In this document: positions 640-45,180 of the stretch, in pieces
Layout of the letters: every line of letters starts with the position of its first letter
How positions within the stretch are numbered: the stretch's first letter is position 1
Made by a program: the position numbers and the translations under genes
The notes under the pieces: model-generated
What the model saw: only the letters and a program-made list of their open reading frames with translations
What the model was told of the DNA's origin: nothing
The model's database searches: none
Assembly: GCA_963422365.1 (NCBI GenBank)
Contig: OY729426.1
Span: forward strand, 992,001 to 1,056,000
Origin: Nitrospirales bacterium
Lineage (GTDB): Bacteria > Nitrospirota > Nitrospiria > Nitrospirales > UBA8639
Length of the DNA stretch: 64,000 nucleotides
Reading direction: 5' to 3'

Positions 640-3378
640 TTGTGCACACTTTGTACTATTCGCCCTGAGATGGAAATAGACGCGCCGGTGGACGCTCTGG
701 TCCAGGAGACGTTAGCGTCTCTTGTAGATCGATTGGATCGCACGATTCAATCGGTCTATGAGAATCAGGGAACCCCGGTGTCACCCACGACAGAGCTTGA
801 TTCGTTCGTTTCAACGCACATCGTCGAGGCTTTGCGGAATACGGTGTTTCCCGCACACGTCGAGGCGGAATTATTGGTGCTACATTTTTTGTTTCAGGGA
901 CAGGATCAGGAAGGGATAGCACGGACACCAAACCGATCTCCGATGAAGACCGTCGGAGACAGGTTAGAGACGGCCAGACGGATCCTGGCTCTTTTATCGA
1001 ACATGGCGCTTCAGCAACCTTCTGATTCCCCACCAGGCTTGGGACCCAACCCGGGTCGCAGGGTGACGGCTAATCAAAGTGATTCGCGATACGCGAAGAA
1101 GCCCCGTGATTCGTCAAACCGCATGTTACACGAGACAGACGTTCGGTTTGCCAAAGGGGTAGGCCCCAAACGTGCGTTGTTACTTGAAAAATTGGGTATT
1201 CGCACGATTGAAGATGCCTTGTGGTTTTTACCCTGGCGGTATGAGGATCGCTCCCGCATCGTGTCCATCTCTCAACTGGTTCCCGGCGAGAAAGCCACGA
1301 TTGCCGGAACCATCCATCAGGCCAGATTCCGGCGTACGCCACGACGTCATATGACCCTGTTCACGATGTTGGTTCGTGATGAAACGGGTGCCGTGGAAGT
1401 CGTGTTTTTCAATCAGCGTTATCTCGACAATGTGCTCAAAAACGGTTTGCGCGTGGTGCTCAGTGGCCCCGTGGTGGCGCACCCCCAGACAGGAGGGGTT
1501 CAAATGAGAACTCCTCAGTATGAGGGAGTGGATACGGATGAGGACCTGCTGCTCCACGTTGGACGCATTGTCCCCATTTATCATGAAACCCGTGGGCTGA
1601 GTTCCCGACATCTTCGCAGGGTCATGCGGAGCCTGCTGGAAGAGTACGGCTCTCACTTGCAAGACCCGCTTCCATCGCGTCTCCTGCAGCAACACCATTG
1701 GCCCTCCCTGGATGAGGCCATTGCGTCTCTCCATTTTCCAGGTAACCGTGAGGAACTGCCCTTGCTCAACAATTGGAAGACGTTGGCCCATCACCGGTTG
1801 GCCTTCGAAGAAGGCTTTCTTCTTCAACTGGCGTTGGCGCTCCGACAACGCATGAATCAATCAGCGGTACCCGGCATTGCCTTCCGGCTCACCGGAACGT
1901 TCACCGCACCGTTACGGAAGCAATTGCCGTTTCGACTCACGGAAGCCCAGCAACGGGTGATTGCCGAGATCGAAGCAGATATGCGTGCCCCCCGGCCTAT
2001 GAACCGGTTGCTCCAGGGAGACGTGGGGTCGGGTAAAACCATCGTGGCCCTGCATGCCATGTTGGTGGCCTGTGGGGACGGGTATCAAGCCGCCTTGATG
2101 GCCCCGACTGAAATTCTGGCGGAACAACACGTGTTGACCATCCTGCCCTACCTCGAATCTCTCGATGTTTCCGTTGCCTTTTTGACCGGAGGGATGTCGC
2201 AGAAGGAGCGGGCTGGTGTTTTAGAACGAGTCGCTGCGGGAGACGTGCAGCTGATCGTGGGCACGCATGCGCTGTTGGAACAGGACGTCCAATTCGCCAA
2301 GTTGGGAGTCGTGGTTGTTGATGAACAACACAAATTCGGCGTGCTTCAGCGCGGGAAACTTCGAGAAAAAGCCCTGCATCCCGACGTCTTGGTGATGACC
2401 GCCACCCCGATACCCCGTACCTTGGCCATGACGGTCTATGGAGACCTTGACATGTCCGTCATCGATGGGTTGCCTGCCGGGCGTAAACCCATTCAGACGC
2501 GAGTCTTTCGCTACAAGGCGCGGCCCAGGGCCTACGAGTTGGTGCGGAAGGAAGTCAACGCGGGGCGGCAGGCCTATATTGTGTATCCATTGGTGGAAGA
2601 ATCCGAAAAACTTGACCTCGAAGCGGCCCTGCAGGCGGCAGAACGCTTACAGGAACGAGAGTTCCCTGCGATGAGGGTGGAGGTCCTCCATGGACGCATG
2701 AAGTCCGCTGAGAGAGCCAAAATCATGAAGGCGTTTCGGGCTGGCGACGTTCAGGTCTTAGTCGCCACGACCGTGATCGAAGTGGGCTTGGATGTGCCCA
2801 ATGCCACGGTGATGGTGATAGAGCATGCCGACCGATTCGGGTTGGCCCAGCTCCACCAGCTTCGCGGGCGGGTCGGGCGTGGTGCGCAACGGTCGTTCTG
2901 TTTACTGATCAGTTCGGCTGGCAGAAGGACGGAGAGAAACGATCCCCCGATCCCAAACGTCGGGGACAGGCGTCAGGAGCAAAAGCCGGATGTCCCTACG
3001 ATGCAGGGGGCGTACAGTTTAGAGTTGCCATTCTCCACGGAGACGGCCGCGGAACTCACGCACAGACAGACCAAGCCGACGCAAACCGCGGAGCAACGTC
3101 TGAAAGCGATGGTGCATTGCGGCGATGGTTTTGCGATCGCCGAACAAGATCTCCAAATTCGTGGCCCTGGTGAAATGTTGGGAACACGGCAATGGGGGGT
3201 TCCTGAATTTCGAGTGATGAATCTAGTTCGAGATGCCGCGGTGTTGGAACAGGCGCGTCAAGAGGCGTTGGCCCTGATGAAGCAGGACCCTCAATTGTCC
3301 CATCCTGACCATCAACTGCTCAAGGCCAACATGTTGCGGAGATGGCAAGCCAAACTGGATCTAGGATCGATCGGATAA
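640..3378 (+). CDS. recG: ATP-dependent DNA helicase RecG (start uncertain, long N-terminal extension)
   Basis: MNRLLQGDVGSGKT, MAPTEILAEQH, DEQHKFG, MTATPIPRTL, HQLRGRVGRG, DLQIRGPGE. Confidence 0.96.
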   Translation: MCTLCTIRPEMEIDAPVDALVQETLASLVDRLDRTIQSVYENQGTPVSPTTELDSFVSTHIVEALRNTVFPAHVEAELLVLHFLFQGQDQEGIARTPNRSPMKTVGDRLETARRILALLSNMALQQPSDSPPGLGPNPGRRVTANQSDSRYAKKPRDSSNRMLHETDVRFAKGVGPKRALLLEKLGIRTIEDALWFLPWRYEDRSRIVSISQLVPGEKATIAGTIHQARFRRTPRRHMTLFTMLVRDETGAVEVVFFNQRYLDNVLKNGLRVVLSGPVVAHPQTGGVQMRTPQYEGVDTDEDLLLHVGRIVPIYHETRGLSSRHLRRVMRSLLEEYGSHLQDPLPSRLLQQHHWPSLDEAIASLHFPGNREELPLLNNWKTLAHHRLAFEEGFLLQLALALRQRMNQSAVPGIAFRLTGTFTAPLRKQLPFRLTEAQQRVIAEIEADMRAPRPMNRLLQGDVGSGKTIVALHAMLVACGDGYQAALMAPTEILAEQHVLTILPYLESLDVSVAFLTGGMSQKERAGVLERVAAGDVQLIVGTHALLEQDVQFAKLGVVVVDEQHKFGVLQRGKLREKALHPDVLVMTATPIPRTLAMTVYGDLDMSVIDGLPAGRKPIQTRVFRYKARPRAYELVRKEVNAGRQAYIVYPLVEESEKLDLEAALQAAERLQEREFPAMRVEVLHGRMKSAERAKIMKAFRAGDVQVLVATTVIEVGLDVPNATVMVIEHADRFGLAQLHQLRGRVGRGAQRSFCLLISSAGRRTERNDPPIPNVGDRRQEQKPDVPTMQGAYSLELPFSTETAAELTHRQTKPTQTAEQRLKAMVHCGDGFAIAEQDLQIRGPGEMLGTRQWGVPEFRVMNLVRDAAVLEQARQEALALMKQDPQLSHPDHQLLKANMLRRWQAKLDLGSIG

Positions 3379-3384
3379 ACGCCG

Positions 3385-3722
3385 ATGCGAGTCGCGGGTC
3401 TTGCTATCGGCACCCTCACGCGTCGGTTATTGGTAGCAGCGGTTTCCGCTGAGGCTGAGGGCCAGATTCACACCATCCACACCATCTATTCGGACCGAAA
3501 CATTTTGCAGTTGGGGAAGGAGTCAACTAAACCAAACGACTCAAACCGGAGGCCACGGTGCGCGTGATTGAGACGATTCGGAAGTGGAAAGCGATCATCG
3601 AGAGCCTTGGAGTCGAGCGGTATACGGCCGTGGCCCCCAGTGCCGTTCGACAAGCCGGGAATCGGGCAGAGTTTGTGGGGCGAGTCAAGTAAACAACGGG
3701 CGTCGAGGTCGAAATTTGGAGT
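3385..3722 (+). pseudogene. ppx: Ppx/GppA exopolyphosphatase remnant (frameshift, stops, truncated)
   Basis: MRVAGLAIGTLTRRLLVA..SDRNILQLG, then shifted frame GVN*TKRLKPEATVRVIETIRKWKAII..YTAVAPSAVRQAGNRAEFVGRVK*TTGVEVEI. Confidence 0.8.
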
Positions 3723-3849
3723 CCATCAATGGCTAAGATAGTGTTTTGTTTCGCTCAATTCGTGAACCGTATCCATCATGCGGCGGTAGTGGTTGCCGGG
3801 TATGCTGTCCATGCTCGCCTCCGCTTTCCCTGCATCTTGTCACGTATGC

Positions 3850-4284
3850 ATGCCGTTCACGAATCGCCCTTTTATTTTGGCCATAACCGGTGGGTTGCTC
3901 CTTTCAACATCGGCATTTGCGGCCAATCTTTCCGTGATTGTTGACGGAGTGACCGAATCGGATGGCACGATCAGGGTTGCTCTTCACGATGGCGCAACGG
4001 GTTTTCCAGATAAGCGGAAACCCGTGATGGGGAAGATCGTCAATGCCAAATCCTCACAGGTTATGGTGGTGTTCCCAAATCTTTCTCTGGGAAAATATGC
4101 CGTCGCGGCGTGTCACGACGCTGATGGAAACGGGAAGATAAACCGCAATCCGTTGGGTATGCCAACTGAGGTCTCTGGGTTTTCAAACAATGCCCGCGGC
4201 AGCTTCGGCCCGCCGAAATTCGAAAACGCCACATTCGCAATTGGAGATGGCGATGCCACGATAAGGTTCGCCATCGCGAAATAG
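3850..4284 (+). CDS. DUF2141 family exported protein
   Basis: Signal peptide ending AFA; GKYAVAACHDADGNGKINRNPLGMPTEVSGFSNN..FGPPKFENA. Confidence 0.85.
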   Translation: MPFTNRPFILAITGGLLLSTSAFAANLSVIVDGVTESDGTIRVALHDGATGFPDKRKPVMGKIVNAKSSQVMVVFPNLSLGKYAVAACHDADGNGKINRNPLGMPTEVSGFSNNARGSFGPPKFENATFAIGDGDATIRFAIAK

Positions 4285-4410: not shown

Positions 4411-5895
4411 CTACCGTTGACTATACCAGCGAAATCCTTGGGATTCTGTATAGGCGGGGCGGTGAAACCCTCCGGGTTTTTCCAGGATCAAGGCTTTAAA
4501 GTCCCATAACCCGAACCAAGCCGGATCGAGGATGTTATGGTAATGAAGGCCGGTCAGTTTGGTGAGCGTCTCCCCGAGGGTGTGCTGTAATTCCGATTCG
4601 GTATACGCCCGCACCGCGAATGTTTTTCCCTCTGCTTCCTGGAGGCGTCGTATCGCATAGGCGGCGCCGGTACAAAGAACTTGAGTATCCCGTCGAATCG
4701 AGAGGAGTTGAGGAAGCGCACAGTATTGTTCTCGAAATCCGAGCCATCGGGCCGTATGGCGGAGATAGGTGAATTGAACTTCGTATTCCGTATGGCCGGG
4801 CAGCCGCACAGGGTCAGGCCAGCCTGAATCAATCCCGAATTCAATGAGCAAGGCTCGCCCACCCGGCTTAAGCACGCGCCAGAGTTCGTGCAGGAATTGA
4901 ATGGCGCCATGGTTCAAGATCACTTCATCGGGATACGGGGTGTCCAGGTTCAATCGGAGTGTTCGAATCAGGTCCAAACTCTGCTGATGCTCGGGAGTCG
5001 TGCCCTTGCGAGTCTCCAGTTCTTCCTTGGATAAATGGATCGGGGTCATATCCGCCAGGTTTTCATTGTCAAGAACCAAGTCCACGCTGGCCGCGGCTAA
5101 GGGCAACTGTTCCGCGTTCGCATGCAGGATTCTGGCGTCCCATCCCGCTTTTCCGGCTAATGCGAATTGGGATTGAAGAAAGGCTCGGGTGAGATCCAAA
5201 AAGAGATATTCCACGCCGCGTCGTTCGAGTGGCGAAAATTCTTTTGCCATTTCCTGGGACAGATAGCCCAAGCCCGCGCCTACCTCCACGATCCGCTGAG
5301 GTTTCGGACTCCACCAGCCTAATTGCCTGAGAGTTTTGGCAAGCAATTGGCCATAGGACAATCCATGCAGCGCTTCACAGGGTTCTCGGAGGAGATGGGA
5401 AACCGTAGTTTCGACAATTTCGAAATGGCCATGATGGCTTTGAATCCCTTTATGATGAAACTCCGTGAGATGCTCCTCGCTTTCGACTGCCACGTTTTCA
5501 TGCCATTGTTCGCGCACGTTTTGGAGAAGGAGGTCCCACTTCGCATTGACGCTATGCCCACTTGGTGGGGTCGTCCCGAAATAACACAACGAATATCGGG
5601 GTAAGGACCACCGTTCGAGAAACCACCGGCCGGTTTCTTGATGAGAGCCACAGATCCATTTGCCGAATTGATCGAGGAGCGCGTTGATCGAAAGGCGGCC
5701 ATCCATGGCCCCAAGGAGAGATGCGCCCATTCGGTTCAGCCGGACTAAGGGCAAATCTTCATCAAGCGGCGTAACCCACCATTCCTGAGGCCCCTGTTGG
5801 TAGACCACGAGGTCCGGCATGCGCCAGGCTCGTTGTTGGAGAATCTCGCCCTCTAAGGCAAGGGGTTGAAGGGATGAGACACGGGAAGCGGTCAT
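4411..5895 (-). CDS. Class I SAM-dependent methyltransferase, MidA/NDUFAF7-like, with putative N-terminal PqqD/RRE-like domain
   Basis: IVEVGAGLG motif I, NENLADMTP, RVLKPGGRALLIEFG; N-terminal LVRLNRMGASLLGAMDGRLSINALLDQF. Confidence 0.75.
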   Translation of the reverse strand: MTASRVSSLQPLALEGEILQQRAWRMPDLVVYQQGPQEWWVTPLDEDLPLVRLNRMGASLLGAMDGRLSINALLDQFGKWICGSHQETGRWFLERWSLPRYSLCYFGTTPPSGHSVNAKWDLLLQNVREQWHENVAVESEEHLTEFHHKGIQSHHGHFEIVETTVSHLLREPCEALHGLSYGQLLAKTLRQLGWWSPKPQRIVEVGAGLGYLSQEMAKEFSPLERRGVEYLFLDLTRAFLQSQFALAGKAGWDARILHANAEQLPLAAASVDLVLDNENLADMTPIHLSKEELETRKGTTPEHQQSLDLIRTLRLNLDTPYPDEVILNHGAIQFLHELWRVLKPGGRALLIEFGIDSGWPDPVRLPGHTEYEVQFTYLRHTARWLGFREQYCALPQLLSIRRDTQVLCTGAAYAIRRLQEAEGKTFAVRAYTESELQHTLGETLTKLTGLHYHNILDPAWFGLWDFKALILEKPGGFHRPAYTESQGFRWYSQR

Positions 5896-6648
5896 TCAAT
5901 AACGCGAGTCGGCGGGGTTGGCATCAAAGACCATCCGATACATGCCCGCCCAGAATTCCAACCAAGCATCGGCTGCTTCTCGAGCGCCTTCGGCCACCCG
6001 ATGCAAGTCGTCCTCCGATCGGGCTGTCTTTCGAACGGCCTCAACCAACAAATTGCGATGGTGTTGTTCTTCAGCCAGATGTAAGGTAAAAAATTCTAAC
6101 TCTCCAGGATGAAATTGCTCATATTGTTCGAGGCCCGGCACAAAATATTTGAATTCGGATGCCGCGGTGGTTTCGACGGCTAATGCCGCTCCCAGCGCGG
6201 TTACATGTCCGGAATGAAAGAATAATCGCCGTAAGGTGTCGAGGTAGGTCGTCACTGCAGGGATCGGGATGGTGTGTTGGACATCCTGAGGCTGGAGCCC
6301 AATGGCATACGCAAACCGCTCGAGTTGCCGGATATGCACATGGGCCGGTGAGCCACTGCCCAACTCCGAGTACAGGGTCTTGGCCAACTCGGTTCGCATT
6401 TCCGTCTCGTGGATCGGGGTGTGATATAACAGGCCTTCGAGGACTTTGACGAAATGGAAGCAAAAGTAATGGTATTGCCGAACAAAGGCCCGAAGCTGTC
6501 GAGGCTGAAGTTGTCGAGCCCTAAACGTTCGGAAAAATTCGTTGGTCGTAACCGGATGTGCCTGGAGTTCTACGACAAGCGATTCGACATCAAAAGGGGT
6601 AGCTTGAACAGGGCTCATGCAATTCACACCAAGAATGGAAAAACTCAT
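5896..6648 (-). CDS. Heme-oxygenase-like diiron oxidase (TenA/PqqC/CADD superfamily); start may be 6618
   Basis: Helical protein with SELG-x6-H, AVE and FFTLHLAEEQHH metal-ligand pattern. Confidence 0.85.
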   Translation of the reverse strand: MSFSILGVNCMSPVQATPFDVESLVVELQAHPVTTNEFFRTFRARQLQPRQLRAFVRQYHYFCFHFVKVLEGLLYHTPIHETEMRTELAKTLYSELGSGSPAHVHIRQLERFAYAIGLQPQDVQHTIPIPAVTTYLDTLRRLFFHSGHVTALGAALAVETTAASEFKYFVPGLEQYEQFHPGELEFFTLHLAEEQHHRNLLVEAVRKTARSEDDLHRVAEGAREAADAWLEFWAGMYRMVFDANPADSRY

Positions 6649-6948: not shown

Positions 6949-7743
6949 TCAGCCCCCTCTCTCCATCTGCAACTCACACCACACAGGCGTATGGTCAGAA
7001 GGTTTCTCTTTCCCGCGTGGGCCTTTGTCGACCCCGGAGGCCACGAGCCGGTCGGCAGCCTGCGGAGAGAGGAGCAAGTGATCAATCCGTAACCCGTGGT
7101 CCTTGTTCCAGCACCCGGCCTGGTAATCCCAAAAGGTGTACACGCCCATGTGCGGGTGACGGGCCCGAATCGCATCGGTGAGTCCCAGGTAACATAAGGT
7201 CTGAAATCGGGCGCGGGTCTCGGGGTGACAGAGCGCGTCATTGGCAAACCCCTCAGGGTCGTACACGTCATCATCCGTGGGACAGACATTATAATCGCCG
7301 CCCACCACGAACGGATCCTCATACGTAAGCGAGGTGTGAACGTGGGCAATCAGGCGATCCATCCACGCTAATTTGTAGGAAAATTTTTCCGTCTCGATCG
7401 GATTGCCGTTCGGCAGATAAATCGACGCGACGCGGACAGAGCCCTGAACGGAGCCAATCGTGGCTTCGATGTACCTGGCCTGCGCATCGGTTAAATCGCC
7501 TGGCAGCGTCCGCTGTTCGACTTCAATGGGCTGCTTCGCGAGAATCCCTACGCCATTGAAAGTTTTCTGTCCGACGAGAGCGACGTGATAGCCGATGTCT
7601 TCAATCTCGGATTGGGGAAAACTCTCTTCCAGAGATTTCAGTTCCTGAAGCAACAGGACATCAGGACTCGCCTCTCTCAGATAAGCCGTGACATGCGGCA
7701 GCCGGACTTTAATGGAGTTCACATTCCATGTGGCGATCTTCAT
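6949..7743 (-). CDS. xth: Exodeoxyribonuclease III
   Basis: MKIATWNVNSI, LQELK, YLPNGN, GDYN, RIDHLL, PSDHTPV. Confidence 0.96.
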   Translation of the reverse strand: MKIATWNVNSIKVRLPHVTAYLREASPDVLLLQELKSLEESFPQSEIEDIGYHVALVGQKTFNGVGILAKQPIEVEQRTLPGDLTDAQARYIEATIGSVQGSVRVASIYLPNGNPIETEKFSYKLAWMDRLIAHVHTSLTYEDPFVVGGDYNVCPTDDDVYDPEGFANDALCHPETRARFQTLCYLGLTDAIRARHPHMGVYTFWDYQAGCWNKDHGLRIDHLLLSPQAADRLVASGVDKGPRGKEKPSDHTPVWCELQMERGG

Positions 7744-7838
7744 ACAAGGAGATTCTAGAGAGTTCGATTGATCCGTGGCAATTGTTTCAGGAATCAAATC
7801 GGTAAGGAAGGCACGGGTTTCAATTGAACGCAGCAACG

Positions 7839-10679
7839 CTAATGCGCTTCGCCCCATGAATGGCCCTGTCCCACGTCGACCGTCAGAGGTACCGCCAGGT
7901 GAAGCGCGGGAAGGGAAGCGGATTCCATGACGGTCTTCACCACCTCGCCCGTTTGATCAACCACCTCTTCGTCGACTTCAAAGAGCAATTCATCGTGGAC
8001 CGTTAAAAGCATGGTGGCTCGGGTGTCGAGGTGCTGTTGTGCCAAAGCCGGCGGTACACGAATCATGGCGCGTTTCAAAATGTCGGCGGCCGTGCCTTGG
8101 ATCGGGGCATTGATCGCCGCGCGTTCGGCAACGTTGCGTCGTGCGGCATGTTTGTCGTGGATGCCCGGGATATGGCACCGACGACCAAAGAGCGTTTCCA
8201 CGTATCCCCGTTCGCGGCAGAATTGCTTGGTGTGGTTCATATAATCTTGGATGCCGGGGTATCGTTCAAAATAGGCCTTCATGTAAGTAGCGGCTTCTTC
8301 GTTGGAAATGCTCAGTTGGCGGCTGAGTCCGAATGCGCTGATCCCGTAAATAATGCCGAAATTAATGGCCTTGGCTCGACGCCGCATGGCCGGGTCCAGT
8401 GTTTTGGCGTCGACTCCGAACATTTGACTGGCGGTCAGGGCATGAATGTCCTGGCCTTCATGGAACGCATGTTTCAACGCATCGATGTTGGCAATGTGGG
8501 CGAGAAGACGGAGTTCAATTTGCGAGTAGTCCAGCGACAGCAGGCTCCTCCCCGACTTGGCCACGAAGGCGTAGCGAATTTTTCGACCGTCTTCGGTCCG
8601 GATGGGAATATTTTGAAGATTGGGGTTCGTCGAAGACAGGCGTCCGGTCGACGCGGCGGCCATGGCAAAGGCGGTGTGCACGCGACCCGTTCGCGGATTG
8701 ATCTGTTCGACCAACGCGTCGGTATACATGCTTTTTAATTTGTCGAGTTGTCGCCATTCTAACACCGTCGCCGGCAGGTCGTGTCCCTCAGCGGCCAGCG
8801 ATTCCAACACGTCGGCTCCTGTGGAATAGGTGCCGGACTTCCCTTTGTGTCCGCCCTCCAAGTGCATTTCGTCAAACAAGACCTCACCCAGTTGCTTAGG
8901 AGAGCCGACGTTAAATTCGTGACCAACGCGTCGGTAAATGTCTTTCTCCAATGTGCGTTGGCGTTCTGCGAATTCTCGGCTGAGCTGCTCCAGTTTCGCA
9001 CGGTCGACATTGATGCCCTCGATTTCCATGTCGACCAGGACGGACACAAGGGGCCGTTCTAAGGTCTCATAAGGCGTCACCATGCGTTCGGCCAGCAGGC
9101 GGGGTTTGAGTAATTGGTGAAACCGCAAGGTCAGGTCTGCGTCTTCGGCGGCGTAGGCCAAGGCTTGATCCAGCGGGACCAGATCAAAGGTGATTTGGGA
9201 TTTTCCCGTGCCCGCCACGTCCTTGAACGTGATCGTCCGATGGCCCAGATGCAGTCCGGCCAATTCATCCACGCCGTGGCCATGGCTGCCTCCGTCCAGG
9301 ATGTAGGACATCAGCATGGTGTCGTCGACCGGTGAGATGGTGACGTCGTAGCGTCGAAGGACCACCATGTCGTCTTTCAGGTTATGACCGATTTTAAGCA
9401 CCGAGGGATCGGCGAAGAGTGGACGCAGGATAGCGAGGGCGGCGTCGAGCGGAATTTGTCTAAGAGGTTCCTGCCCTGGGGCAGGAGGATTCTCACCCGA
9501 GGATTTGGAAAAGTCCAATTCAGATGCTGGCGCAGGGTGCCGGTGTGCGAGAGGGACGTAGCACGCATGACCGGGTTGGACACACAGAGCAAGGCCAACC
9601 AATTCCGCGAGGCTTTCATCCACGGACGTGGTTTCGGTCTCGATCGCGACTGCGCCGGCATAGCGCGCTCGGGTCACCCAGTCTTGCAAGACCACAGTGG
9701 ATTGGACCAATTCATAGTGGGTGGCGGCCGGCGGAGCCTTTTTGATCTCAGGGACGACTTCCCCGGACGCCGCCAGCCGGTTTTGGACTTTAGCCATGAT
9801 CGCCCTGAAGCCCTGTTCATGGAGGAACGCGAGTAATTGTGAGGGGTCAGGGTGTTGGCGTCGTAACTGAGTCACCGTCACGTCCGTCGGTACATCATCC
9901 CGTAAACGAACCAGTTCTCGTGACAGTCTGGCTTGATCGGCAAAATCGATGAGGCTTTGGCGTCGCTTCGGCTGTTTGATTTCGGACGCGCGCGCGAGCA
10001 AGGAATCCAGGTCCCCATATTCTTGAATGAGGAGGGCCGCGGTTTTGACCCCAATGCCCGGAACCCCCGGCACATTGTCCGTCGAATCGCCGGCCAGGGC
10101 TTGCACGTCCACCACGTTCTCCGGGCCGACCCCGAATTTTTCGTTGACTTCCGCTCGGCCGATTCTCCGGTTTTTGATGGCGTCGAACATGTTCACCCGA
10201 TCGGACACCAACTGCATCATGTCTTTATCCGAGGACACAATCATGACGTCAAACCCTTCCGCCTCGGCGTGTCGCGCATAGGTGGCAATCAGGTCATCCG
10301 CTTCGAAGCAGGGCCTTTCAAGGCATGCCACCTTGAAGGCTCGCGTGGCGTCTCGAACCAACGGAAATTGAGGAATCAGTTCGTTGGGCGGGTCGGGTCG
10401 ATTGGCTTTATAATCGCGAAAAATCTCATGCCGAAAGGACTCCCGCGCCGAATCGAAGATCACGGCCATGTGCGTGGCCTGAAGGTCCTCCAGCAGTTTG
10501 AGCAACATGTTGGTAAACCCGAGGACGGCGTTCACGGGCGTCCCGTCCGATCGGGTCAGTAACGGGAGAGCGTGGAATGCCCGAAATAAGAAACTGGACC
10601 CATCCACCAAACACAGGTGTCGTTCAGAAGAATCTTGGTGTGGCGGCTTCATTATGTTGTCCATGGGTGTCGTTTTCAA
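7839..10679 (-). CDS. polA: DNA polymerase I (start uncertain)
   Basis: LVDGSSFLFRAFHA, GDSTDNVPGVPGIG, TGRLSSTNPNLQNIP, DYSQIELR, AKAINFGIIYG, VHDELLFE. Confidence 0.98.
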   Translation of the reverse strand: MKTTPMDNIMKPPHQDSSERHLCLVDGSSFLFRAFHALPLLTRSDGTPVNAVLGFTNMLLKLLEDLQATHMAVIFDSARESFRHEIFRDYKANRPDPPNELIPQFPLVRDATRAFKVACLERPCFEADDLIATYARHAEAEGFDVMIVSSDKDMMQLVSDRVNMFDAIKNRRIGRAEVNEKFGVGPENVVDVQALAGDSTDNVPGVPGIGVKTAALLIQEYGDLDSLLARASEIKQPKRRQSLIDFADQARLSRELVRLRDDVPTDVTVTQLRRQHPDPSQLLAFLHEQGFRAIMAKVQNRLAASGEVVPEIKKAPPAATHYELVQSTVVLQDWVTRARYAGAVAIETETTSVDESLAELVGLALCVQPGHACYVPLAHRHPAPASELDFSKSSGENPPAPGQEPLRQIPLDAALAILRPLFADPSVLKIGHNLKDDMVVLRRYDVTISPVDDTMLMSYILDGGSHGHGVDELAGLHLGHRTITFKDVAGTGKSQITFDLVPLDQALAYAAEDADLTLRFHQLLKPRLLAERMVTPYETLERPLVSVLVDMEIEGINVDRAKLEQLSREFAERQRTLEKDIYRRVGHEFNVGSPKQLGEVLFDEMHLEGGHKGKSGTYSTGADVLESLAAEGHDLPATVLEWRQLDKLKSMYTDALVEQINPRTGRVHTAFAMAAASTGRLSSTNPNLQNIPIRTEDGRKIRYAFVAKSGRSLLSLDYSQIELRLLAHIANIDALKHAFHEGQDIHALTASQMFGVDAKTLDPAMRRRAKAINFGIIYGISAFGLSRQLSISNEEAATYMKAYFERYPGIQDYMNHTKQFCRERGYVETLFGRRCHIPGIHDKHAARRNVAERAAINAPIQGTAADILKRAMIRVPPALAQQHLDTRATMLLTVHDELLFEVDEEVVDQTGEVVKTVMESASLPALHLAVPLTVDVGQGHSWGEAH

Positions 10680-41570: not shown

Positions 41571-41742
41571 TAAAAATAGATGAAGATGAAGTGCCATGAA
41601 TCAATAATTAATGAACCGATGATGAAGCAACAGTCAGGAAAGGGGGTGGTTGGGCAGAGTTTTTCCCCATTAGGGGTTTTTCAATTAATCCATTCCACGT
41701 TAGGCCGACATGGATCGGCCTTTACACGAGGAGGTATTCACA

Positions 41743-44700
41743 ATGTTTCTTTCTAGACGTCAATTTTTAAAAGTGACCACCGGGACGGTCGCGGCAGTGG
41801 CATTGGCGGACAAAGCCTTGGCATTGACTGCACTGCAACCGGTTGTCGAAGTTGGTAATCCGCTGGGCGAGTATCCAGATCGTGCCTGGGAGCGGGTGTA
41901 CCACGATCAGTATCGTTATGATTCATCGTTCACGTGGGTCTGCTCCCCGAACGACACTCACGCCTGTCGCGTGCGTTCCTTTGTGCGTAACGGGGTGGTG
42001 ATGCGGGTGGAGCAAAACTATGACCACCAAACCTACGAAGACCTCTACGGTAATCGCGGGACGTTTGCGCATAATCCGCGGATGTGTTTGAAGGGGTACA
42101 CGATGCATCGACGGGTGTATGGGCCCTATCGGTTGAAAGGCCCCTTGATGCGCCGTGGCTGGAAAGCCTGGATGGATGCGGGAAGCCCGGAATTCACTCC
42201 AGATGTCATGAACAAATACAAATTCACTTCGCGGTACCTGGACGACATGTTGCGGGTAAGCTGGGATACGGCATTTACGTACTTGGCCAAAGCCATGGTG
42301 ATTATTGCGGAACGGTACAGCGGCGAATCCGGCGCCCGTCGGCTGCGTGAGCAAGGCTATCCACCGGAAATGATCGAGATGACCAAGGGCTCGGGCGTGC
42401 GGACTATGAAGTTCCGTGCAGGTATGCCCATCTTGGGCGTGATTGGGAAAATGGCAATTACCCGGCTCAACGGTGGCTGTGGCGCGTTGCTCGACCACTA
42501 CATTCGGAAAGTGAAGCCCAACCAAGCCCAAGGCGGGCGGTATTGGTCGAACTACACTTGGCACGGTGACCAAAACCCAGCGCATCCGTTTTGGTCCGGG
42601 GTGCAAACCTCTGACATCGATATGAGCGACATGCGGTTCTCGAAGTTGAACACGAGCTGGGGTAAGAACTTTGTCGAGAATAAGATGCCGGAAGCGCACT
42701 GGAAGCTCGAGAGCATTGAACGTGGAGCGCGGGTGGTCGTGATCACGCCAGAGTACAATCCAACGGCGTATCGAGCCGACTACTGGATTCCGGTTCGACC
42801 AGAGACGGATGCGGCATTGTTTTTAGGTGCCTGCAAGATCATGTTCGACGAGAACATGCATGACCATGATTTCTGCGCAGCCTATACGGACATGCCGATT
42901 CTGGTTCGTACGGATACGCTGCAATATCTGGATCCGCGCGACGTGATTAAGGGCTATTCATTGCCGGACTTCTCGAAGACCTATTCGGGGAAAGTGCAAA
43001 CGCTCAATCCGGCGAAAATCGCGCGTCTTGGCGGTTTCATGGTGTGGGATATCAATAAGAACCAAGCCGTGCCGATTCACCGGGAGTTAGTGGGTTGGCA
43101 TTACAGGAACAGCGGCATTGAGTCAGCATTGACCGGTACCTACAGGGTGAAGTTGCTGAATGGCAGGGAAGTCGACGTGGCACCGATCTTCCAGTTGTAT
43201 CAAGTCCACTTGCAGGATTACGACTTGGATACGGTGCATCAGATCAACCGGTCCCCGAAGGACCTGATCGTCCGCTGGGCCAGAGATTCCGGTGCTATTA
43301 AACCGGCAACCATTCACAACGGGGAAGGAACGAACCACTACTTTCACCAAACCATCATTGCGCGCGGCGCAGCGATGGTGTTGATTATTTCTGGGAACGT
43401 CGGGAAGTTCGGGACCGGACAACATACCTGGGCAGGGAACTATAAAGCGGGGATCTGGAACGCCACCCCGTGGTCTGGCGGTGGTCTGGGAACGCACACG
43501 GCGGAAAATCCGTTTAAGATTACGACAGATCCGAATGCGCACGGTAAAGAAGTGCACGTGCGTGGGTACTACTATGGTGAAGAAGTGGCTTACTGGAACC
43601 ATGGGGATACGGCGTTGATCGTGAACACGCCGAAGTATGGGCGTCGGGTGTTTACCGGAAAGACGCACATGCCGACCCCAAGTAAGTTCCGGTGGGTGGC
43701 GAATGTGAACGTGGTCAATAACGCCAAACACCACTATGACATGGTCAAGAACGTGGACCCCCACATTGAATGTATTGTCACCCAAGATATTGAGATGACC
43801 TCGGACGTGAACCATGCGGACGTGGCCTTGGGTGTGAATACGTGGATGGAGTTCACGTATCCTGAGCATACGGCGACGGTGTCGAATCCGTGGTTCCAAG
43901 TGTGGAAAGGGGGCATTCGGCCCTTGTATGACACCAGGAACGACCTGGATACCACAGCCGGCGTGGCCGCCAAATTGACCGATATGACGGGCGATGGGCG
44001 GTTCCGTGATTACTTCAAGTTCGTCTACGACAACCGGGTGGACGTATATGTTCAACGGTTGTTGGATGCGAGCTGTACGGCGTATGGGTACAGCGCAGAT
44101 ACCATGCTCAAGTCCGAGAAGGGCTGGATGGTGCTGTGCCGCACCTATCCACGGCAGCCGTTCTGGGAAGAGACGAATGAGAGTAAGCCTCAGTGGACCC
44201 GGACTGGTCGGTATGAGAACTACCGGACGGAACCGGAAGCGATTGAATATGGGGAAAACTTCATCTCGCACAGAGAAGGAACGGAAGCAACGCCGTACTT
44301 GCCGAATGCGATTATGACGACGAACCCCTATGTGCGGCCGGATGACTATGGTATTCCCATCACGGCTCAGCACCATGATGACAAGACGGTACGTAACATT
44401 GCGTTGCCGTGGCAGGAAATCAAGCGGTACTCCAACCCACTGTGGGAGAAGGGGTATCAATTCTACTGCGTGACGCCGAAGACGCGGCATCGTGTACACA
44501 GTCAATGGTCAGTGAACGACTGGGTGCAGATGTATGAGTCGAACTTCGGAGACGCGTATCGGATGGATAAACGAACACCGGGTGTGGGTGAGCATCAATT
44601 GCATATGAACCCGCAAGCGGCAAAAGACCGGGGGATCAACGATGGTGACTATGTATACGTTGACGGTAACCCGGTTGATCGGCCATACCGAGGATGGAAG

Positions 44701-45180
44701 CCGAGCGATCCGTACTACAAAGTGGCTCGGTTGATGATTCGGTCGAAGTACAACCCGGCGTTTCCGTACCATGTAACCATGGCGAAGCATGCGCCGTATG
44801 TGGCAACTGCGAAATCCGTGAAGGGGCATGAAACCCGACCGGATGGACGGGCAATTGCGATGGATACGGGTTATCAATCAAACTTCCGGTATGGAGCGCA
44901 GCAGTCCTTTACCCGTGACTGGTTGATGCCGATGCACCAAACCGACTCACTGCCAGGGAAACATGCTGTGGGCTGGAAGTTTAAATTCGGGTATCAAGTG
45001 GACAACCACGCGGTCAACACAACTCCAAAAGAGTGTCTGATGCGGATTACCAAAGCAGAGGACGGTGGTATTGGCGGAAGGGGTCCATGGGAGCCGGTCC
45101 GGACCGGGTTTACGCCTGGGCAGGAAAATGAGTTTATGATCAAGTGGCTCAAAGGCGACCACATTAAGATCAAGGTGTAA
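41743..45180 (+). CDS. nxrA: Nitrite oxidoreductase alpha subunit (periplasmic, Nitrospira-type)
   Basis: Tat signal MFLSRRQFLK, CSPNDTHAC..CLKG Fe-S motif, NYTWHGDQ, C-terminal GDHIKIKV; GAGGAGG RBS. Confidence 0.97.
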   Translation: MFLSRRQFLKVTTGTVAAVALADKALALTALQPVVEVGNPLGEYPDRAWERVYHDQYRYDSSFTWVCSPNDTHACRVRSFVRNGVVMRVEQNYDHQTYEDLYGNRGTFAHNPRMCLKGYTMHRRVYGPYRLKGPLMRRGWKAWMDAGSPEFTPDVMNKYKFTSRYLDDMLRVSWDTAFTYLAKAMVIIAERYSGESGARRLREQGYPPEMIEMTKGSGVRTMKFRAGMPILGVIGKMAITRLNGGCGALLDHYIRKVKPNQAQGGRYWSNYTWHGDQNPAHPFWSGVQTSDIDMSDMRFSKLNTSWGKNFVENKMPEAHWKLESIERGARVVVITPEYNPTAYRADYWIPVRPETDAALFLGACKIMFDENMHDHDFCAAYTDMPILVRTDTLQYLDPRDVIKGYSLPDFSKTYSGKVQTLNPAKIARLGGFMVWDINKNQAVPIHRELVGWHYRNSGIESALTGTYRVKLLNGREVDVAPIFQLYQVHLQDYDLDTVHQINRSPKDLIVRWARDSGAIKPATIHNGEGTNHYFHQTIIARGAAMVLIISGNVGKFGTGQHTWAGNYKAGIWNATPWSGGGLGTHTAENPFKITTDPNAHGKEVHVRGYYYGEEVAYWNHGDTALIVNTPKYGRRVFTGKTHMPTPSKFRWVANVNVVNNAKHHYDMVKNVDPHIECIVTQDIEMTSDVNHADVALGVNTWMEFTYPEHTATVSNPWFQVWKGGIRPLYDTRNDLDTTAGVAAKLTDMTGDGRFRDYFKFVYDNRVDVYVQRLLDASCTAYGYSADTMLKSEKGWMVLCRTYPRQPFWEETNESKPQWTRTGRYENYRTEPEAIEYGENFISHREGTEATPYLPNAIMTTNPYVRPDDYGIPITAQHHDDKTVRNIALPWQEIKRYSNPLWEKGYQFYCVTPKTRHRVHSQWSVNDWVQMYESNFGDAYRMDKRTPGVGEHQLHMNPQAAKDRGINDGDYVYVDGNPVDRPYRGWKPSDPYYKVARLMIRSKYNPAFPYHVTMAKHAPYVATAKSVKGHETRPDGRAIAMDTGYQSNFRYGAQQSFTRDWLMPMHQTDSLPGKHAVGWKFKFGYQVDNHAVNTTPKECLMRITKAEDGGIGGRGPWEPVRTGFTPGQENEFMIKWLKGDHIKIKV

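Follow-up and report, generated by a model that had tools for sequence, protein, structure and literature searches.

The locus and its predicted diiron oxidase

Two adjacent genes on the minus strand were analyzed in the window, that is, the whole stretch of 64,000 nucleotides of Nitrospirales DNA. The genes and the predicted domains of the second product are as follows:

5896-6648, minus strand: gene of a heme-oxygenase-like diiron oxidase (HDO; PF14518), predicted to be of the 3-His/3-carboxylate (3H/3C) type, 250 aa from the first ATG
4411-5895, minus strand: gene of a MidA-type class I SAM methyltransferase with a predicted RRE fused to it, ORF of 494 aa
5611-5832, minus strand: predicted PqqD/RRE-like domain of the methyltransferase (residues ~22-95), strands followed by three helices
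4468-5496, minus strand: predicted MidA/COG1565-type catalytic domain of the methyltransferase (residues ~134-476), from a fold match and 13 invariant residues

The first-pass annotation of this DNA described two intact, abutting minus-strand genes, and this description holds: both are intact open reading frames, and in the window's genome the TGA of the oxidase is immediately followed by the ATG of the methyltransferase, with no gap at the junction. The start of the oxidase is probably Met11 (position 6618), since its homologues are 240 aa long and begin there. The surroundings had been described as decayed, which applies to a single neighbour, a frameshifted ppx/gppA remnant at 3385-3722 (plus strand), whereas the frames at 3793-4284 (DUF2141) and 6949-7857 (exonuclease) are open, as are two long ones at 640-3378 and 7839-10679, which we take to be recG-like and polA-like, respectively. 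An nxrA-like molybdopterin oxidoreductase gene (1156 aa) is also found in the window at 41710-45180 (plus strand). A promoter and terminator scan of the locus gave matches at chance level. Relatives that bear names are Nitrospirales, and none were found in the plasmid and viral collections searched.

The oxidase matched Pfam PF14518 (E 2.9e-25), and it displays the HDO signature, i.e., a seven-helix fold and E-H, E, H-x3-D/E-x2-H ligands, in a predicted model with a pLDDT of 93. The ligand set already recognized in the first reading (E95, H105, E159, H190, E194, and H197) occupies the same positions as in CADD and is invariant in all 48 aligned homologues, which were taken from at least 120 matches. 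BesC, HrmI, and CADD tie as the structures nearest to the model (Z 24.6-25.2, rmsd 2.2-2.7). The product of gene 1 is an HDO, predicted from this model to be of the 3H/3C type, and belongs to an uncharacterised HDO clade. According to the available text of PMC13108848, a ligand is contributed by the substrate in the solved 3H/3C HDOs, whose substrates are mostly free amino acids or fatty acids, and HrmI is one of these enzymes that is able to N-oxygenate an amino acid.

Several more specific identities were rejected. The Phe noticed earlier in place of the CADD tyrosine is Phe39, invariant in 48/48 homologues, which aligns with Tyr27; Phe169 aligns with Lys152, and these are the two sacrificial residues of CADD in the accessible portion of PMC11965152. 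Since this pair is absent and the score against the CADD-type model TIGR04305 (51.8 bits) misses the cut-off of 200, the oxidase is not a CADD/NePabS pABA synthase. PqqC and TenA are metal-free HO-like enzymes of pqq or thiamine operons. They were likewise set aside, because the oxidase has a full set of metal ligands, the genome has no PqqD gene, and the Z scores of PqqC and TenA are lower than those of BesC, HrmI, and CADD; the earlier placement of the oxidase outside all three groups is thus upheld. In SznF and RohS, as described in the parts of two papers open to us (PMC7848743, PMC13133933), a seventh Glu lies 26 residues ahead of the first ligand, on a turn that breaks auxiliary helix 2. 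This helix (residues 49-76) is predicted to be unbroken in the model of our oxidase, and Val67 falls at the seventh-Glu position as placed via the CADD and BesC alignments, not by superposition on SznF, so the 3H/4C class was excluded. An invariant Glu71 is found one turn past Val67. Finally, the idea of a degenerate oxidase (Ala155, Leu200) was dropped because Ala155 is common to the whole clade and dN/dS is low; Leu200 is private to the window's oxidase. Long oxidase fusions, in what is a weak test, were not found among 8000 candidates. The genome encodes a second PF14518 protein (L235:1168-1917), in which the C-terminal H-x3-E-x2-H motif is not evident.

A MidA-type methyltransferase with a predicted RRE-like N-terminus

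The top structure matches of the methyltransferase model in Foldseek and VIA were all MidA/COG1565 proteins, the best being 5ztz (Z 20.1, rmsd 3.4, 264 residues aligned), and the best match outside MidA reached Z 17.9. The resemblance to MidA proposed from four motif pairs was borne out, as all four align between the methyltransferase profile and the canonical MidA of the genome, within an overall alignment that is weak (E 0.059). Likewise, the protein retains all 13 residues that are invariant in 110 distant members (full-length sequences from at least 150 matches). Its score against PF02636 is 15.9 bits, below the cut-off of 23.3, and nothing significant was returned when either the methyltransferase alone or a profile of its N-terminus was compared with the sequences of solved structures. 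Judged from its model, the catalytic part of gene 2 is predicted to have a MidA-type methyltransferase fold. Three PF02636 proteins are encoded elsewhere in the genome (L101, L102, and L103, at G000:C1:221190-222371, 1152075-1153124, and 1294803-1296245), among which only L101, the canonical MidA, adjoins nuoA/nuoB. The part of PMC9006661 available describes MidA as methylating a protein arginine, with a role at complex I. Since the canonical MidA sits beside nuoAB, the complex I role is probably taken and complex I is probably not the target of the methyltransferase studied here.

The assignment of the N-terminus as a PqqD/RRE-like domain, a prediction also made in the first-pass annotation, is moderately supported. 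In the secondary structure of the model, residues 22-95 follow the strand-then-helix order of an RRE. Their score of 28 against a profile built from 30 PqqD domains (probability 58%, E 1e-4) also exceeds all controls, which scored at most 22 in 59 control families and at most 21 in 186 column shuffles (0/186 reached 28). The signal in Pfam PqqD is weak, with 15/36 members matching at a best E of 0.028 and the window's protein below the cut-off; the relative P0255 clears this cut-off with 26.7 bits, and the distant-family profile A5 matches PqqD with a probability of 80%. In the accessible text of the RRE-Finder study (10.1101/2020.03.14.992123), 1,050 methyltransferase matches were put aside as presumed false positives, so RRE-methyltransferase fusions may have been overlooked. 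The same text states that vestigial RREs exist, which is a real caution for the RRE-like domain of our methyltransferase.

Distribution of the pair and gene context of its relatives

We surveyed an even draw of 250 Nitrospirota genomes, comprising 81 Nitrospirales and 169 others. The methyltransferase is single-copy in 80/81 Nitrospirales, across three families, and absent from all 169 other Nitrospirota; the copy in G224 is fragmented. A broader profile detected it in 79/81 and 0/169 genomes, respectively. Neither the methyltransferase nor nxrA was found in any of five genomes of a fourth Nitrospirales family (G027, G030, G033, G036, and G039; completeness 73-98%). The co-occurrence of the two genes was not counted as functional evidence because it is a single-clade pattern.

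Orthologues of the oxidase (E below 1e-100, the following matches beginning at 1e-53) were detected in 21/81 Nitrospirales and are absent from 59 of the 80 genomes bearing the methyltransferase. Of these 21, 20 adjoin the methyltransferase, in all three families, while the other neighbours vary between loci (TehB-like methyltransferase, cupredoxin, transporters), so the co-location anticipated for homologues of the pair is observed. The exception is G216, where the oxidase lies on a separate contig amid unrelated genes. In a phylogeny of 81 methyltransferases, approximately six separate branches lack the oxidase, and 3' remnants of it persist upstream of the methyltransferase in G015 (E 9e-9), G013 (E 0.001), and perhaps G011 (E 0.3). 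Purifying selection acts on both genes, with dN/dS values of 0.08-0.19 for the oxidase (one outlier at 0.32) and 0.06-0.11 for the methyltransferase in the 27 of 38 pairs with measurable dS. The two genes also give concordant tree distances (Spearman 0.97 over 38 loci), a result that vertical descent alone would also give. Taken together, the patterns of presence, adjacency, loss, and remnants indicate that the pair is ancestral, that the oxidase nearly always needs this neighbourhood, and that the methyltransferase is independent of the oxidase. The coupling is one-way, and the oxidase is an old partner that was repeatedly lost. Downstream of the methyltransferase, the slot is often filled by AAA-ATPase or mobile-looking genes, and in six genomes (G094:C195, G139:C20, G174:C1, G208:C13, G109:C4, and G136:C24) the methyltransferase 3' end recurs 1-7 kb farther on, resembling an integration site.

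A profile search retrieved a wider family of 633 representatives (E up to 0.001), and other methyltransferases will be present among its least significant matches. Distant homologues are full-length (400-640 aa), many pass the PF02636 cut-off, and some relatives are fused to an HD domain, to GNAT, or to a ScmF-like radical SAM/SPASM enzyme (Omnitrophota); the ScmF-like fusion P0256 scored 338.8 bits against a cut-off of 400. From the 284 loci yielded by a metagenome scan, we analyzed the 80 nearest to P0250, many of them on short contigs. Among these best 80 of 284, PqqD, radical SAM, or ScmC-like genes were present at 14 loci; counting S26-like peptidase or NTP_transf_5 genes as well raises the number to 22 (14 groups at 70% identity). 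Since a further 36 of the 80 carry a GNAT/DUF6916/tail-collar cassette and 22 show neither context, the RiPP context is not family-wide. The GNAT/DUF6916 cassette is conserved as GNAT, methyltransferase, DUF6916, GNAT, and three tail-collar-domain proteins (L166, L175, L187, L203, L206, and ~30 similar loci), and the tail-collar proteins could be methyltransferase targets there. No HDO was detected in the same best 80 of 284 loci (757 kb searched with the A2 profile), where very divergent HDOs could be missed, as this profile missed the second HDO of the genome. In view of this result and of the 59/80 genomes that lack the oxidase, the two-enzyme module first envisaged is not supported as an obligate one.

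Short peptides, which had been suggested as a check on homologous loci, are present near relatives: precursor-like ORFs, none matched by an NCBIfam model, occur in L134, L135, L144, L146, and L147, and lasso B2 and cyclase-like genes lie near the methyltransferase relative of L156. At L134:9992-16094, L135:6880-15856, and L146:8341-17733 we observed Scm-like cassettes in which several radical SAM/SPASM genes are accompanied by PqqD and precursor-like ORFs, one of them in L135 encoding a Cys/Gly/Ser-rich peptide of 112 aa. The RRE-methyltransferase is present in these cassettes, once fused to the ScmF-like enzyme, and all Scm scores are below curated cut-offs. In an abbreviated maximum-likelihood analysis of 39 sequences and 335 columns, rooted at the midpoint, the Nitrospirales methyltransferases group with those of the RiPP-context loci L134, L135, and L137 (UFBoot 83), and the closest non-Nitrospirales relatives with known context sit in RiPP-like cassettes. 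These sequence comparisons are suggestive of an origin of the methyltransferase gene in a RiPP cassette, but are not proof of it.

The Nitrospirales loci themselves are different. In agreement with the first reading, no precursor gene adjoins the pair, and neither precursor nor maturation genes were found in the window or in the Nitrospirales loci examined; no PqqD, peptidase, or radical SAM gene lies beside the methyltransferase, and the pair is not accompanied by tailoring, ligase, or export genes. The window's genome has no PqqD gene, and searches of it for a precursor (small-ORF and motif scans, sister-clade precursors) gave only chance-level matches, with the possibility that a divergent one could escape.

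Proposed function, alternatives, and relation to known systems

The reading that we favour, tentatively and as having slightly less than an even chance of being right, is that the methyltransferase is a MidA-type enzyme of likely RiPP origin that modifies proteins under the guidance of its RRE and became part of the core gene set of nitrite oxidisers, the diiron oxidase being an optional companion that possibly shares its target. This reading draws on the folds, conserved residues, purifying selection, single-copy spread, one-way linkage, and RiPP-like context of relatives. The methyltransferase would methylate a side chain, likely that of an arginine, in a protein or peptide encoded elsewhere, with the RRE domain presumably still binding a leader-like strand. 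The oxidase would be a co-inherited, dispensable partner that adds an O2-dependent second modification to what may be the same target. The gene of a RiPP tailoring cassette may in this way have been retasked onto a conserved Nitrospirales polypeptide. As to its parts, the substrate of the methyltransferase is probably a polypeptide, while the chances that the two enzymes share a pathway seem evenly balanced. The favoured reading is weakened by the failure to find a precursor or PqqD in the genome, by the many genomes that keep the methyltransferase without the oxidase, the unlinked oxidase of G216, the failure to find long oxidase fusions (a weak test), and the lack of HDOs in the best 80 of 284 distant loci, by a RiPP context that does not extend to the whole family, by the RRE match below the Pfam cut-off here, and by the preference of characterised 3H/3C HDOs for free amino or fatty acids.

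A more specific version, which we consider rather doubtful, is that nitrite-oxidising Nitrospirales descend from an ancestor that domesticated a RiPP tailoring enzyme: the RRE would read a strand of a core protein (e.g., a nitrite-oxidation component or maturation factor), which would be methylated and, in some lineages, oxidised by the HDO at the same residue. If true, this would be an unrecorded methyl-plus-oxidation protein modification, and the oxidase would be one of very few HDOs acting on polypeptides.

The main rival, somewhat unlikely in our estimation, is that the genes have long shared an operon but serve separate functions: the methyltransferase would act on a core protein, and the oxidase would be triggered by a free amino or fatty acid substrate and, in the manner of BesC, UndA, or HrmI, catalyse its C-C cleavage, desaturation, or N-oxygenation. 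On the one hand, the repeated losses of the oxidase, its 3' remnants, its unlinked copy in G216, and its nearest structures (BesC, HrmI, and CADD) fit this arrangement, as does the location of an HDO paralogue of ~28% identity among genes of aromatic amino-acid breakdown. On the other hand, the persistence of adjacency in 20/21 orthologues across three families while other neighbours change, together with the zero-gap junction in the window's genome, argues against it. The paralogue represents a second Nitrospira HDO clade (L240:6354-7127, L241:6673-7440, and L242:6955-7719), located beside homogentisate dioxygenase-like and beta-eliminating lyase genes, and is possibly a new step in that breakdown.

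It is improbable that the methyltransferase acts in trans as a RiPP tailoring enzyme on short precursors such as those we identified in Nitrospiraceae. There, cassettes (L107-L118 and L261-L263, e.g., L261:5047-8701 and L112:1363-2100; precursors in alignment A6) combine a B2 peptidase, PqqD, one to three precursors of 36-58 aa, and HPr-kinase-like and NTP_transf_5 genes. The precursors have a leader pattern Y-x-x-P ... E-x-L-R-D-[IV]-T-A and Gly/Arg/Lys-rich cores, and constitute an undescribed-looking family present in 27/55 Nitrospiraceae genomes and 0/195 others. The cassette genes resemble those around the sister methyltransferases, and in 14 of the 27 genomes the precursors share a contig with the methyltransferase at a distance of no more than 30 kb (coordinates compared by hand). 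However, approximately ten unrelated genes (ppx-, recG-like, and others) intervene, and the cassette has its own PqqD. Moreover, the precursor family is absent from the window's genome and from all 25 genomes of its family, in which the methyltransferase is nevertheless under purifying selection, and so cannot explain retention of the gene here; NTP_transf_5 genes are patchy in that family (13/60).

Housekeeping duplicates, i.e., an additional methylase acting on the NuoD of one among several complex I copies, or a CADD-like pABA synthase, are highly improbable: the MidA fold and the place of CADD among the nearest structures are outweighed by the presence of two other PF02636 proteins in addition to the canonical MidA next to nuoAB, and by the absence of both sacrificial residues and the low TIGR04305 score of the oxidase. 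Least probable of all is a route on free arginine with N-methylation followed by N-oxygenation, the SznE/SznF analogy originally drawn, which gains from HrmI, a tied best structural match that N-oxygenates an amino acid in the accessible part of PMC13108848, but fails on the missing seventh-Glu turn (Val67 in a helix predicted to be unbroken), on the RRE and protein-methylase (MidA) fold, which point to a polypeptide, and on the lack of accompanying tailoring, ligase, or export genes.

Both parts of the pair belong to known superfamilies. A literature search of articles outside subscription journals, without supplements such as the RRE-Finder tables, revealed no description of the architecture, the clade, or the pairing, and listed no paper on this pair or on RRE-MidA fusions. 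Nitrite-oxidising Nitrospirales are a main group of nitrifiers, and the retention by almost all of them of a single-copy enzyme that was not found in the remaining Nitrospirota of the survey points to a protein modification that has so far gone unrecorded. In the wider family, an RRE and a MidA-type domain are combined in one protein that is encountered repeatedly in RiPP-like clusters, and the chemistry of the family is directly testable because L134, L135, and L146 hold the enzyme and a candidate precursor side by side. The Nitrospiraceae precursors of alignment A6 are likewise testable substrates.

Among known systems, SznE/SznF of streptozotocin biosynthesis also couples a methyltransferase gene with an HDO gene. 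SznF differs in its 3H/4C ligands, cupin domain, and free methyl-arginine substrate (from the available part of PMC7848743), and does not occur among the matches listed for the oxidase. BesC (7twa), HrmI (9n1e), and CADD/NePabS (1rcw, 8va9, and 9pj4) share the seven-helix fold and 3-His/3-carboxylate ligands with the oxidase, but each at only 16-21% identity. MidA/NDUFAF7 (COG1565, PF02636; 5ztz, 4g67, and 1zkd) provides the best structure match of the methyltransferase (Z 18.9-20.1, 253-264 residues aligned) and shares its motifs, but at 14-19% identity, and the window's protein has an N-terminal RRE-like domain and no nuo neighbours. Finally, while the Nitrospirales gene has no adjacent precursor, PqqD, peptidase, or radical SAM gene, its sister methyltransferases are located in RiPP cassettes of the SynChlorMet (ScmC/D/E/F) or lasso type, or form fusions with an ScmF-like enzyme.
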